DNA of 64,000 bases, from assembly GCA_964392445.1 (NCBI GenBank), contig CAYMPD010000002.1, forward strand, positions 37,037 to 101,036. Direction: 5' to 3'. The notes under the pieces were generated by a model, which was not told the DNA's origin, ran no database searches, and saw nothing but the letters and a program-made list of their open reading frames with translations. Source of the stretch: an uncultured archaeon (lineage in GTDB: Archaea > Aenigmatarchaeota > Aenigmatarchaeia > CG10238-14). Shown in pieces: positions 47,487 to 51,478 of the stretch. Position 1 is the first letter of the stretch, and every line of letters starts with the position of its first letter. Made by a program: the position numbers and the translations under genes.

Positions 47487-47629
47487 GAAACTACAGTTGT
47501 TCAAATCCTAATTCTCAAAAATTTATTGGATTTCTGGGTATTTATTAATTATATATCAAATAATGATATATTGATATAAATAGAAAATCTTCTTGTTGAG
47601 AGAAGACTTTCTATTGAGGGACGAATATG

Positions 47630-48772
47630 CTATTCGCCCCTCTTGATCTCGGTAACGACCCCGAGTCGATTGACTCGGGCCGAGAAGATCTGACCGACCC
47701 TGAAGTGGGACCATTCGCCGTAATCACAGGAATACTTCCGAGTTTTCTCCTTCCTATTGACGAAGACGACACTGTAGTTCTCCGATCTCCCGGATTCCCG
47801 TTCATTTCCAGCGAGGGTGACTCCTGGCCAGTACGCTTCGTGGTCATCTCCAGAAGCCCTCTCTGTCCTGTCATGAACCCACCTATCCACTTGGTAGGTG
47901 TATTTGGTCTTATAGACCGGTTCATCACAGTACTTGGTCACCGTCCTGTATTTCGTTTCACAGCGGGTCTCATAGACTGGGCGCCTGCATTCTATGTCCT
48001 CGAAGTAACCATTTCCCAGGTCTCTTTGACCACAGACGTAGGTCTCTGTCCCCACTTGAACTTGTTCGCAGTCTTGGTAGGACTCCTGCTCTGTCCCACA
48101 AGCGACCTGATCGTAGTGGTGGATTTCCCTGCTCTGTGAGACGATACGAGCGTCCCCGGGAAGTTCGCCCTCCCATCCGGTACGGGTGACTGTGCGGAAG
48201 GATTCGATGCTGACGGATCGTTTCCAGTTGAATCCTGCCACCTTCAGGGTCTCGTCGTGGGGGACGAGGATGAAGACCAAGAGAAGGATCATACCAACGA
48301 TACCTGCAGCGATTGCGATGCTTTGCCATGGGATAGAAAGTCCCGTCTCTCTGATACTTCGGGGGAAGTCTAGTTCCCCCAGTGAAGGGCTACCCGTCAT
48401 CGTCTTCCCAGATGTAGGGTGAGATTGGGAGCGAGTTCTCTTCTCCCGTGCCTCTTCACCGCTTCTGGGGACTTCATCGAGGTCGTAGTCCCTTACTTCG
48501 CGGCTGGGTGATGTTCCCCTCTCAGCACCACATTGCATGCATTTACTATGAGTTGCCCGGTTGGACGTCCCACAGAAGTTACATATCCAGTCCGGTCCAG
48601 CCTTCGCTTCGGCGATCTTCTCTGGGATTCGAACTTCGGGTTCCCCTTCAGGTAGGTAAAAATCCACTTCTGCTCCACGGGGGCGTCCGCATCCAGGACA
48701 CTTCATCACGCTACCTCGGATACCCGTTGTCCCGCAATACTTACAGTCCCAACGTCCTTCTCGGATAGCCAT
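47630..48772 (-). CDS. Double Zn-ribbon (RanBP2-like) membrane protein
   Basis: WDCKYCG..CPGCG and WICNFCGTSN...CMQCGA, one TM, Cys-containing beta-rich C-terminal domain; AGAAAGGAG SD. Confidence 0.85.
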   Translation of the reverse strand: MAIREGRWDCKYCGTTGIRGSVMKCPGCGRPRGAEVDFYLPEGEPEVRIPEKIAEAKAGPDWICNFCGTSNRATHSKCMQCGAERGTSPSREVRDYDLDEVPRSGEEAREKRTRSQSHPTSGKTMTGSPSLGELDFPRSIRETGLSIPWQSIAIAAGIVGMILLLVFILVPHDETLKVAGFNWKRSVSIESFRTVTRTGWEGELPGDARIVSQSREIHHYDQVACGTEQESYQDCEQVQVGTETYVCGQRDLGNGYFEDIECRRPVYETRCETKYRTVTKYCDEPVYKTKYTYQVDRWVHDRTERASGDDHEAYWPGVTLAGNERESGRSENYSVVFVNRKEKTRKYSCDYGEWSHFRVGQIFSARVNRLGVVTEIKRGE

Positions 48773-48856
48773 TGTTTTGCTCCTTTCTAGGAAGGTTTAT
48801 CAAGAGAGGAGGGAAAATCAGTCGGAAGATATCCCCTCCTCTATTCTGATCGTCAT

Positions 48857-49843
48857 CTACTGGGTCGGGACACAGGGTTGTACATCCATGTTGCCGTAGC
48901 CGGTCGTGGAGATGATGAGGTTCTCAGGTGGCCTCTCAAGGCTAAGTAGCCACTGAAGCGTCAAGAACCTGATTACAGCGTCTTCACTCTCGATGCCAAG
49001 TGACCGCATAGCATCTAGCTGACCTCGAGTCAGCTTCTCCAGAACCTGGATATCTGTGTCGGCTTTGTAGTTCTTTGTCTGCCTCTCGATCGCAGCAGCG
49101 TCAAACTCTGCCTGTTCCTTTGCTGACAAAGTCTGTGCCACGACGGTGTCGTCGAAGGCCTTAGCCACCTCTGGGTTGGTGAAGTCCCAGAAAGCAAGGG
49201 AAACCCTCACCAGAGGAACCTGTTCGGCTTCAAACCAGCTACCAGTCTCTGTGTTGATGCTCTTTACCACTGCTCCCCTCTCGGCGGTCAGGTTAGCTGG
49301 CGTATATTCCTTGACCGCTTCGGCGACCTTCGGCGCGAGTTGGTTCCCCCATGCCGCCTTGATCGTCTCGAAGTTGAACGTATTGTACTCGGTGACATGT
49401 TCTACCCAATCGACCCTGGAGAGATCGAGATAGAAGCAGGTCGTCAGCTTGACCTCATATCCACCTTTGACAGATGGTAGGAAGTCCCAACATACCTCCT
49501 GTTGGGTACCTGCCGGGAACTTCTTGACCTCGCTGGAGAGGATCGGTCGGGTCGTCAGACCCGATTCCCTCATCGAGCCTACTATGCTACCGGTGGTCTT
49601 ATCGAGGACGATGCCCTGTTGGTTGAAGGGTATCACTCTGTGTGTGAGGGAGAAATGTGACCCCAGACCAAAGAGGAAAGTACTCAACAGGAAGACCACC
49701 GCAAGTATGACTCGCTTCCTCTTGTTGGCGTACTGGTCGAAGTACGTGATTGCCATCCATAGGGTGAGAACAAAGCTCACCAACCCCAGGATGATGAAGA
49801 GGGTGGCCGCCCATCCATTTGCTAACCAACCTAAGACTGACAT
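48857..49843 (-). CDS. SPFH/Band 7 (prohibitin-like) membrane protein
   Basis: N-terminal TMs, VIPFNQQGIV...G, AV..Y....L..ER, F..A.D..V.AQ.....EQ coiled coil; GAAAGGAG SD. Confidence 0.85.
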   Translation of the reverse strand: MSVLGWLANGWAATLFIILGLVSFVLTLWMAITYFDQYANKRKRVILAVVFLLSTFLFGLGSHFSLTHRVIPFNQQGIVLDKTTGSIVGSMRESGLTTRPILSSEVKKFPAGTQQEVCWDFLPSVKGGYEVKLTTCFYLDLSRVDWVEHVTEYNTFNFETIKAAWGNQLAPKVAEAVKEYTPANLTAERGAVVKSINTETGSWFEAEQVPLVRVSLAFWDFTNPEVAKAFDDTVVAQTLSAKEQAEFDAAAIERQTKNYKADTDIQVLEKLTRGQLDAMRSLGIESEDAVIRFLTLQWLLSLERPPENLIISTTGYGNMDVQPCVPTQ

Positions 49844-49947
49844 GATGTGTCTCCTTTCGGTAATTGCTTACGGATTTACAATTGGGTCAAGTCCTCGCGC
49901 GAAAAGGATCGGCCAACAAGTTACCTTATATTCTTCTTGGATTCAAC

Positions 49948-50451
49948 TCAACCAGGAATGGAGATGAGTATCAGGATCGCGGCGCCGATTGCTACGACGA
50001 TCATGATCACGATGACCGCGGCGAATGCTGGATTGATCGGTGATTTCTTACCCTCGAACTCCAGTAGGATGAGGTTTATCTCGGCCACGGCCAATTGCAG
50101 TTCCTCGGGGTGCATCATGTAATAGATGGACGTCTGTGGCGAACACAGATTTCCATCACCATACAATACTCCTACCTCACCCGGAGCAAGTGGATGCTCA
50201 CCAATGCAGGTCGCTCTTCCTCCGAATTCACCTTCCTCTTCTTCGGTGGGCATTCGATGACCATGCTGCTGGTGAATCTTGAGGGTCTGTTCCACACAGG
50301 GTTGCTCACCTTCGAAGTAGAAGACGAGGCCACCACAGTTCCCTAGATCGAAGCACTCCATGCAACCCGAACCGATTACAGTAGTCTGTCCCTCGTAGTT
50401 TCCTGGTGTTTGGGAACCATTATCTGCCTTGGGTAATGTATTTTCAGACAT
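49948..50451 (-). CDS. Hypothetical protein with Cys motif and C-terminal TM
   Basis: Start MSENTLPK after a GAAAGGGAG SD; CMEC...C; terminal hydrophobic helix. Confidence 0.7.
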   Translation of the reverse strand: MSENTLPKADNGSQTPGNYEGQTTVIGSGCMECFDLGNCGGLVFYFEGEQPCVEQTLKIHQQHGHRMPTEEEEGEFGGRATCIGEHPLAPGEVGVLYGDGNLCSPQTSIYYMMHPEELQLAVAEINLILLEFEGKKSPINPAFAAVIVIMIVVAIGAAILILISIPG

Positions 50452-50635
50452 TTTTCTCCCTTTCGAACTTTGATTGAAACCATCGACAGGGTCGGGGATT
50501 CTGTAGTTATCCCTGACCAACGGGTGTTTGGACTAAAGTCCTTCTGATTCACCTCCTTTGAATGACTAAAGGAAACTAACAAATCCAACCTAGCTTCCAA
50601 GATATCAAGAACTTGGTTGGTAAGCCCTATCAAGG

Positions 50636-50709
50636 TGCCTCAGGAGGGATTTGAACCCACAACCTTCGGTATTGGAGACCGCTGCTCTACCTGGTTGAGC
50701 TAATGAGGC
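50636..50709 (-). tRNA. tRNA-Trp(CCA), intron-less, several stem mismatches
   Basis: GCCTCATTAGCTCAACCAGGTAGAGCAGCGGTCTCCAATACCGAAGGTTGTGGGTTCAAATCCCTCCTGAGGCA; mismatches at 7:66, 27:43 and in the T-stem. Confidence 0.8.
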
Positions 50710-50712
50710 TAG

Positions 50713-50785
50713 TGGTGGCGGAGAGGGACTCGAACCCTCAACACGGAGGTTATGAGCCTCCGCTCTACCATTGAGCTACTCCACC
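50713..50785 (-). tRNA. tRNA with CAT anticodon (probably elongator Met, Ile2 possible), CCA encoded
   Basis: GGTGGAGTAGCTCAATGGTAGAGCGGAGGCTCATAACCTCCGTGTTGAGGGTTCGAGTCCCTCTCCGCCACCA; full cloverleaf, G1-C72. Confidence 0.92.
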
Positions 50786-51478
50786 AGAAATAGTATCTCA
50801 AGACAACCAAGATAATCAATCGATCCAATCCACACTAAAGGTATCTCCTACATGGAGACTGCCCAAAGTGGGCGGAAAGACCTTTTCTCGTTATCTGAGA
50901 GATTAGTCTTATTTACTTGTATTGTGAAAGCAACGCAAGACAATCTCAGACTTACATTACTATTACATTAGAATTATAGTAAAATTTAAATACTTAATGG
51001 TAGTGACAACTAATAACTAGTTTCAACCTTCATGATTTTCCATAAATTAGGAATTATTAATTTCTTCTCTATGTTCCATTATATTTTCTTTCAATTCTTT
51101 TGGTTCTAAATAAATACCATATTGGGGTAATACTTTGTCGCAAATAGTTTTAACCTTGTAGTCGAAATCAGGGCTATCAATCTGTTTGAAAAGGTTTTTA
51201 TTGTTTCCCTGAATTTAGTTTTCCCTATTTTTGTGTTTTCTTTTATAAGAACATCCGAAGCTATGGGAATAGATGTATTTGAAATAGGTTTTGACAAAAA
51301 TCATGCACATATAAATATTTTAGAAAGGGGATTGCGATCCGTAGCTGAAATTACAAAAAAATCAAGAAGTTATAATTTTTGATGGAATTTCGGCAGGGAA
51401 TTTTAGCTGTAAAAACAAAGTTTTAAATCCTTTTCGAACATTCCTTATTTTAAAGAGTGGAGATATGTGTTTAGTGTA

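Follow-up and report, generated by a model that had tools for sequence, protein, structure and literature searches.

How did a discrete stretch of GC-rich DNA, carrying two tRNA genes and three genes for putative membrane proteins, come to lie in the AT-rich chromosome of an archaeon? This question is raised by a 64-kb stretch of the metagenome-assembled genome (MAG) GCA_964392445.1 of an uncultured member of the Aenigmatarchaeota (contig CAYMPD010000002.1, positions 37,037 to 101,036; the whole stretch is called the window below, and its own numbering is used throughout), in which a block of ~3.2 kb stands out by its guanine plus cytosine (GC) content. The block is probably a genuine, unameliorated piece of foreign DNA in a DPANN-type archaeal chromosome, which came as cargo of an integrase-less islet of 5.4 kb from a donor with ~53% GC and of which at least the gene for a double Zn-ribbon membrane protein is of bacterial descent.

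Composition, anatomy and borders of the block

Contig C2, on which the window lies, belongs to a genome of 1.215 Mb in 54 contigs, which is 94.9% complete with 0.37% contamination. The archaeal nature of the host is apparent from matches to archaeal small and large subunit rRNA models, many intron-bearing tRNAs and the flanking region with NurA and Cbf5; relatives at the order and phylum level have DPANN-like genomes of 0.3-1.3 Mb at ~90% completeness. The best sequencing run holding the sequence is labelled as a microbial mat metagenome.

A previous reading made from the sequence alone (the sequence-only reading) had claimed a GC-rich block of foreign, unameliorated composition in an AT-rich archaeal chromosome, and sliding GC profiles bear this out for 47,611 to ~50,800 (50-57% against 34.4%). 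In 1-kb windows, the GC content of the 64 kb is 0.28-0.41 throughout, except for 0.47-0.54 at 48-51 kb, while 200-nt windows place the steps from 0.25-0.36 to 0.50-0.57 at ~47,600 and back to 0.25-0.35 at ~50,800-50,900. The genome background has a mean of 0.344 (1-kb windows; standard deviation 0.029, 99th percentile 0.414), and values above 0.48 occur elsewhere exclusively in the windows of the 16S rRNA (contig C19) and the 23S rRNA (C10), which makes the block the sole non-rRNA stretch above 48% GC in the MAG; a window of 0.458 on contig C28 lies inside one giant open reading frame (ORF). Equally, GC at third codon positions (GC3) is 0.55, 0.67 and 0.59 in the three protein genes of the block, orf167, the SPFH gene and the Zn-ribbon gene, compared to 0.21-0.34 in host genes and the flanking AT-rich genes, so that the deviation in composition expected of a genomic island extends to silent sites. 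In 5' to 3' order of the minus strand, the features are as follows:

50800-50990, minus strand: element of ~200 nt directly upstream of the tRNA genes, starting with the TATA-box-like sequence TATTTAAAT (blastn and nhmmer)
50714-50786, minus strand: tRNA-Met(CAT), intron-less (ARAGORN; Rfam, 48.7 bits)
50634-50709, minus strand: tRNA-Trp(CCA), intron-less (ARAGORN; Rfam, 56.1 bits)
49948-50451, minus strand: orf167, its protein partly Cys-rich and with a hydrophobic helix at the C-terminus
48857-49843, minus strand: divergent SPFH/Band-7 protein of 328 aa
48802-48845, minus strand: G+C-rich inverted repeat between the SPFH and Zn-ribbon genes (18-nt arms, 83% complementary, 8-nt loop)
47630-48772, minus strand: double RanBP2-type Zn-ribbon single-pass membrane protein of 380 aa
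47579-47615, minus strand: terminal hairpin just past the stop of the Zn-ribbon gene, 15-bp stem and 7-nt loop (repeat search and RNA folding)

All elements of the proposed arrangement of three co-oriented genes behind two tRNAs with a closing hairpin are thus present; the hairpin has a folding energy of -15.8 kcal/mol (z = -6.7), and the U tract behind it, UUUAUAU, is weak. Likewise, the distinctive ribosome-binding sites that had been described were recovered at all three genes, with GAAAGG(G)AG positioned 5-7 nt before each ATG. Upstream of the 850 long ORFs of the genome, GAAAGG is rare (7/850) compared to GGTGA (67/850) and AGGAG (52/850), of which the latter is not rare. The even GC content and the common style of the ribosome-binding sites suggest that the three genes derive from a single source genome. 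The block would be transcribed as one unit, which may start in the TATA-like, genome-specific upstream element, run through the two spare tRNAs and the three genes and stop at the terminal hairpin; the Shine-Dalgarno sites of all three genes would fit the anti-Shine-Dalgarno sequence of the host.

Absence of reads or contigs across the borders would have pointed to a misassembly. Logan contigs, a separate assembly, of sequencing run X1 were aligned to 45.5-53 kb, and contigs bridge both junctions: one of 693 nt covers 47,154-47,846 with 0 differences and one of 2,264 nt covers 49,041-51,304 with 1 difference, whereby both GC borders are crossed by hundreds of bases. The depth in X1 is 4.4-5.6 over the block and 3.9-4.4 over the flanks, and a second sample of the study, X2, holds pieces of block and flank at a depth of 2.6-3.2.

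Ancestry of the Zn-ribbon gene

On the evidence of its sequence, the Zn-ribbon gene is of bacterial descent. The protein passes the Pfam Zn_ribbon_RanBP cut-off (31.2 bits against 27) and has at least 898 homologues at E ≤ 1e-3, with 99% length coverage and 36-50% identity by BLASTP among those listed; every named homologue is bacterial, from Woesebacteria, Chloroflexota and cyanobacteria. With one genome per species in GTDB, 285 relatives were confirmed, and the best 80 of the 285 are all bacterial. In a maximum-likelihood tree of 90 rows, the larger bacterial phyla form single or nearly single clades (changes needed: Cyanobacteriota 1, Gemmatimonadota 1, Pseudomonadota 1, Acidobacteriota 2, Chloroflexota 7), and the window protein belongs to a six-row clade with four metagenomic proteins and one Candidatus Woesebacteria genome of the candidate phyla radiation (CPR), with a value of 99 in the Shimodaira-Hasegawa-like approximate likelihood ratio test (SH-aLRT). 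Its closest sampled relative shows 54% identity over the tree alignment columns; as no sampled relative is closer, the donor of the gene is itself unsampled. In the ESM Atlas, 83-100% of the members of clusters with a similar fold are bacterial. Among viral sequences, an IMG/VR search with the alignment recovered distant relatives alone (23-33% identity), and neither IMG/VR with the single protein nor INPHARED by tblastn gave a match.

Among the genomes of the host's phylum that were searched, the gene is solitary. A single-protein query did not find it in 40 relatives, and profile searches of 151 genomes of the phylum (29 families, 96 genera; 89 genomes at least 90% complete) returned the window's own genome as the sole match and none among the 150 others.

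The window protein has the hallmarks of the family, two CxxC...CxxC ribbons, one transmembrane helix and a conserved C-terminal beta domain; the cysteines C10, C13, C25, C28, C64, C67, C78 and C81 are invariant in an alignment of 39 sequences (99% coverage), and the motifs HHYDQV and DLGNGxFED are present. The AlphaFold2 (AF2) model, with a mean predicted local distance difference test (pLDDT) score of 90.7, displays two Zn ribbons, a disordered linker, a transmembrane helix at 149-168 and a small beta domain, together with three very long strands of 29-53 residues each across 172-308. These strands, predicted with high confidence, would form a very long extracellular beta-hairpin stalk in the bacterial family. 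A beta-pore-forming toxin fold was considered upon Foldseek comparison with the PDB and rejected, with long hairpins alone aligned at a TM-score of 0.17 or less and E values of 1e-3 or worse, and no solved structure was judged similar.

Ancestry of the SPFH-like gene

The AF2 model of the SPFH-like protein (pLDDT 92.4) opens with two helices (10-33 and 41-67), which precede an SPFH alpha/beta domain, and has a single long helix of 58 residues at 224-281, that is, the fold of the superfamily combined with its N-terminal membrane anchor and long C-terminal helix. Foldseek against the PDB retrieved prohibitin, stomatin, HflK/C, erlin, flotillin and the vault shoulder domain (probability 1.00, E 7.6e-11 to 1e-5), and the alignments to cage-forming proteins span 240-300 columns. 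With 22.2 bits the protein falls below the Pfam Band_7 (PF01145) gathering score of 23.6 (E 1.6e-4, 168/176 profile positions); 36 of 57 members of its family match Band_7 at E ≤ 0.01, the best at 3.4e-13. By sequence it is a divergent member of the superfamily. A basic KRKR loop between the two N-terminal helices should be cytoplasmic, which suggests, in this model, an outward orientation of the SPFH domain like that in HflK/C. The sole NCBIfam match, a weak one to a NuoN model over the N-terminal membrane helices, lies below threshold (17.5 bits against a cut-off of 408) and was dismissed, and neither neighbouring protein matches the partner NfeD in Pfam, NCBIfam or PHROGs.

A word-index search detected two relatives of 40-43% identity, and the best sampled relative reaches 47%; an exhaustive profile search produced 64 cluster representatives at E < 1e-10, and none of the 10 clusters looked up carries a name. 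Scanning GTDB species genomes with the alignment yielded 74 pattern matches and 0 confirmed relatives, and there was no match in IMG/VR with the alignment nor in 50,697 phage genomes of INPHARED by tblastn. The sole PHROGs match is phrog_200 ('lipoprotein', category other; E 9e-9). Among the contigs that hold relatives, L010 is phage-like, with a DNA ligase and many small ORFs, and so is the 165-kb contig L143 with small co-oriented ORFs, a methyltransferase, AAA_24 and a GC content of 0.34, in which the relative P0133 at 7001-7963 is followed 4 kb downstream by tRNA-Ile(TAT) and tRNA-Leu(TAA) at 11917-12250; four others (L008, L023, L024 and L144) look cellular. All family loci examined have 27-41% GC and therefore none is the donor. 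The SPFH family is small and metagenome-only, occurs in phage-like and cellular contigs and cannot be assigned to one domain of life.

A single-protein query of the 40 relatives of the host gave two matches close to the E-value limit, both from a single genus of the host's family (E 1e-4, 22-23% identity), and among the other 150 genomes of the phylum the profile matched 7 weakly, with no score above 70 bits. In the tree, the SPFH proteins of the relatives, including the two near-limit matches, form a clade of their own, separated from the family of the window protein by a branch of 1.9 substitutions per site (SH-aLRT 100). Vertically inherited archaeal genes as nearest kin would have spoken against a foreign origin; the nearest homologues of the Zn-ribbon and the SPFH proteins are not such genes.

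An orphan gene, spare tRNAs and the module question

No homologue of orf167 was found among 5.8 billion proteins, and an Atlas feature search stayed below a useful score; the ribosome-binding site and a coding signature with GC higher at first than at second codon positions argue that it is a real gene. The host possesses an intron-bearing tRNA-Trp of its own (C12:19717-19832) and tRNA-Met genes on contigs C1 and C17, and the two intron-less tRNAs of the block are therefore extra copies. The tRNA-Trp has three stem mismatches and the acceptor end G1-C72 with A73; the tRNA(CAT) has an encoded CCA and an atypical junction of acceptor stem and D arm. The tRNAs did not lead to a donor, as blastn against phages found ~72% identity to assorted tRNA pairs with no close match, and searches of five bacterial genomes and 100 genomes of the host's order, which were uninformative, returned other isoacceptors or generic tRNA parts only.

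The three genes had been proposed to constitute a membrane-microdomain module. This was not sustained, as among the loci examined they are neighbours at this one alone: no SPFH-like or orf167-like ORF occurs within 4 kb of the Zn-ribbon gene at 80 bacterial and 10 IMG/VR loci, and no Zn-ribbon relative at six SPFH-family loci. The neighbours of SPFH relatives (a 381-aa ORF on L023, a 208-aa ORF on L010 and the upstream ORF on L014) are unrelated to the proteins of the block, and a complex prediction for the SPFH and Zn-ribbon ectodomains scored 0.00, which gives no verdict and counts as evidence neither way. Judged from the models, the products might belong to the cell envelope, as an SPFH scaffold with its SPFH domain outward, a protein that crosses the membrane once, with both Zn ribbons in the cytoplasm and a very long beta-hairpin stalk outside the cell, and, in the case of orf167, a tail-anchored Cys-rich protein. 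A role of the block in host contact or superinfection exclusion is pure conjecture; PADLOC defence models had no match on the block.

Insertion context

The block is part of an islet of 5.4 kb that starts directly after the 3' end of a tRNA-Ser gene and is bounded by a pair of direct repeats. Besides the block, the features of the islet are:

52924-53083, minus strand: tRNA-Ser(TGA) of the host, intron-bearing (Rfam tRNA, 42.9 bits; ARAGORN with introns)
51467-52831, plus strand: secreted or lipoprotein-like protein of 454 aa inside the islet (translation; host-like GC3 of 0.233)
47472-47486, minus strand: 15-nt direct repeat TCCCTACCTCGGCGT, candidate distal attachment (att) site, identical to 52924-52938 and oriented alike

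The proximal copy at 52,924-52,938 comprises the last 14 nt of the tRNA-Ser gene and the next base, and the distal copy lies 125 nt beyond the block, so that, as in tRNA-targeted elements, a direct repeat of the tRNA 3' end is found at the far border. The window contains 2 copies only, even with 1 mismatch allowed, and 100 shuffled sequences contained 0. The 454-aa protein has an N-terminal hydrophobic signal with a Cys, three tandem Pro/Thr-rich units of 22 aa and a HEAWH motif near the C-terminus; it had no Pfam match and was not found in 5 relatives. Between 47487 and 52924, no further ORF of at least 50 aa and no recombinase match is present.

Gene order in comparison with three genomes of the same genus is conserved at 37.6-41.9 kb and 54.2-59.6 kb, and the 11.5 kb in between (41.9-53.4 kb) have no counterpart in these three genomes. 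The block hence displays the patchy distribution and foreign nesting of a genomic island, with nesting in a named lineage found for the Zn-ribbon gene alone. The region from 41900 to 53400 comprises a 958-aa protein, an Lrp/AsnC regulator, four small ORFs, the islet and the tRNA-Ser gene. The conserved blocks on the NurA side and on the Cbf5 side are joined differently in the same-genus genomes, and the region accordingly looks like a hot spot of rearrangement and insertion.

Some contigs of two samples follow the window as far as 47422 and others follow it only from 47505 on, beyond which they run into other sequence; the loose ends have no match anywhere in the MAG. The divergence, placed right at the distal att-like repeat, points to a variant form or to a related genome that differs there. 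Four kb from the islet, an 84-nt direct repeat (56384-56467 and 56982-57065; 95% identical, ~75 nt exact) surrounds an insert of 0.5 kb, a second insertion with a duplicated gene 3' end, the latter as given by the sequence-only reading. The insert is consistent with a cassette at the 3' end of a putative ribosomal protein gene, whereby this gene label is equally that of the earlier reading.

The ~200-nt element upstream of the tRNAs recurs in the genome, at C33:55-285 (locus L039; 73% identical) and at C4:1-77 (L147), where the copy is cut by the contig end and 99% identical to the C33 copy (E values 1e-59 for C33, 3e-57 for C2 and 4e-10 for C4). The C33 copy is followed by ~450 nt of GC-richer DNA upstream of alaS, and the C2 copy is likewise followed by GC-richer DNA. 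In 25 relatives there were only short, weak matches of chance type, an exact-pattern search in IMG/VR and the metagenomes of the Joint Genome Institute gave no match, and Rfam at a permissive threshold reported nothing credible for the left border and the C33 copy. The element may be a promoter and leader, or the end of a mobile element.

Origin of the block

Taken together, foreign composition, ancestry, absence from relatives and position make it probable that the block is foreign DNA that entered this chromosome, and it would have come by a mobile element or a virus or through uptake of DNA, and not as a series of single genes. Several observations weigh against this interpretation. No integrase, transposase or virion gene was found in or beside the block with Pfam and PHROGs, the 15-nt repeat is short for an att site, and neither an empty site nor an excised form was seen. 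The islet is of mixed composition, with host-like GC3 in the gene for the 454-aa protein, and therefore one event cannot explain all of it. The pair G1-C72 together with A73 in tRNA-Trp is the archaeal and eukaryal identity set and not the bacterial one, and the acceptor end of the block's tRNA-Trp agrees poorly with a donor that was bacterial throughout. Even the closest sampled relatives do not exceed 54% identity, which points to an unsampled donor and makes GC content the only ground for calling the transfer recent. Finally, X1 is probably the MAG's own sample, in which case the bridging contigs would be a separate assembly of data that the MAG already draws on.

The transfer as originally claimed is to be modified accordingly. 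Its cross-domain character is shown for the Zn-ribbon gene alone, nested in a bacterial clade; the SPFH gene is unassigned to a domain, orf167 is an orphan and the tRNA-Trp is of archaeal type. A phage-style nature is hinted at by phrog_200 and the two phage-like contigs with SPFH relatives, while the virion, packaging and lysis genes of a prophage and an integrase are missing, phrog_200 being all that PHROGs gave and INPHARED tblastn having given nothing. The claim of recency was not supported, as it draws on composition only, and the best relatives are 54% (Zn-ribbon) and 47% (SPFH) identical.

Alternatively, the immediate donor might have been a virus or plasmid of archaea, or of this very archaeon, with a higher GC content, which had earlier received the bacterial Zn-ribbon gene and the SPFH gene and of which the block would be a decayed, integrated remnant; a bacterium would then not have passed the DNA to the archaeon directly. 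We consider this unlikely, while giving it more weight than any other alternative. Archaeal integrative elements typically reveal themselves by insertion at the 3' end of a tRNA gene and by a short direct repeat, the tRNA-Trp is of archaeal type by the general identity rule, spare mismatched tRNAs, an orphan gene and a PHROG match are typical of viruses, and the recurrent upstream element opens with an archaeal TATA-like box. However, genes for an integrase, a capsid, replication or partition are missing, close relatives are absent from IMG/VR (none for SPFH, 23-33% identity for Zn-ribbon) and from INPHARED (neither protein), and viruses usually match the GC of their host, which the block does not.

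A further idea, which at present appears improbable, is that the block is one cargo of a cassette system which is specific to this archaeon and dispenses with its own recombinase. The ~200-nt TATA-bearing leader, with copies at three or more loci, lies ahead of GC-richer DNA at the two loci with assembled downstream sequence, and insertions would enter the 3' ends of translation genes, such as tRNA-Ser and the putative ribosomal protein gene, and bring a replacement 3' end. If true, this archaeon would dispose of an integron-like capture and expression of foreign, even bacterial, membrane proteins and spare tRNAs.

An artefact of assembly or binning, by which the fragment of a GC-rich organism was joined into the archaeal contig, for example via conserved tRNA sequence, is very improbable. 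The MAG is a scaffolded bin of 54 contigs, tRNA sequence lies at one border, where k-mers of abundant other organisms pile up on 50653-50691, and the alternative contigs diverge at 47422 and 47505. Against this, an artefact requires two chimeric joins within a 101-kb contig; contigs of a separate assembler span both GC borders with 0-1 differences, block and flanks are of even depth in X1 and of similar depth in X2, gaps of N are absent within 57 kb, and the right border lies ~100 nt beyond the tRNAs, inside an element that recurs in the genome.

That the genes are native and vertically inherited, with GC raised locally by selection or biased repair, is already contradicted, despite a ribosome-binding core GGAG that fits the host and an archaeal-type promoter-like element ahead of the block, by a Zn-ribbon family not found in 150 other phylum genomes, an SPFH gene unrelated to the relatives' clade, a GC3 raised by 0.3 with silent sites included and same-genus genomes without the whole region.

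Significance and comparison with known systems

Bacterial transfers into DPANN archaea are usually inferred from trees and are often suspected to be binning errors, whereas the foreign DNA described here is discrete, has a donor-like GC content and was checked at its junctions. It therefore provides a good test case for the entry of DNA, by insertion at a tRNA end without an integrase, and for its expression from an archaeal promoter or otherwise. Furthermore, two uncharacterised membrane protein families are brought out, a widespread bacterial double Zn-ribbon family and a small SPFH subfamily, which are both open to structural study.

The Zn-ribbon protein shares its full-length architecture, at 40-54% identity, with bacterial membrane proteins annotated as 'zinc finger Ran-binding domain-containing', an uncharacterised family of Chloroflexota, Acidobacteriota, Cyanobacteriota, Gemmatimonadota and CPR, and differs in being the sole copy in an archaeal genome among the genomes searched. 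The SPFH-like protein has the same predicted anchor, SPFH domain and long helix of cage-wall type as the SPFH/Band-7 scaffolds prohibitin, stomatin, HflK/C, QmcA and flotillin, but remains below the Band_7 threshold, belongs to a small family of ~64 clusters, has no adjacent NfeD or FtsH gene and possesses two N-terminal helices and a probably outward SPFH domain.

SPFH genes have been documented in some jumbo phages (e.g. RaK2-like), where their function is poorly understood (PMC7760394). Like jumbo phages with tRNA sets, the block holds an SPFH gene and tRNA genes together; in contrast to these phages, it has no phage structural, replication or lysis gene. The islet resembles tRNA-targeted integrative elements and islands in its position at a tRNA 3' end, the repeat at the far border and the absence from relatives, and departs from them by the lack of an integrase or excisionase, a repeat of only 15 nt and a mixed interior; it may be a remnant, may have been mobilised in trans or may have entered another way.

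Many bacterial-like families have been reported in DPANN archaea, and the question of misbinning versus transfer has been raised for them (Castelle et al., 2021; PMC8204110). Here, likewise, a small-genome archaeon holds an otherwise bacterial protein family; what differs is that the transferred DNA forms a discrete block with donor-like GC, both junctions verified, two tRNAs and an att-flanked islet. Among the families returned by a text search of that article, neither the Zn-ribbon membrane protein nor this SPFH subfamily occurs, and SPFH is not mentioned in the text so retrieved. With SPFH genes of jumbo phages and bacterial-like families of DPANN archaea both documented, the block is a new and unusually clean instance of a known phenomenon and not unprecedented; less ordinary are its spare tRNAs, the integrase-less islet at a tRNA end, the genome-specific leader element and the mixed ancestry of its cargo.

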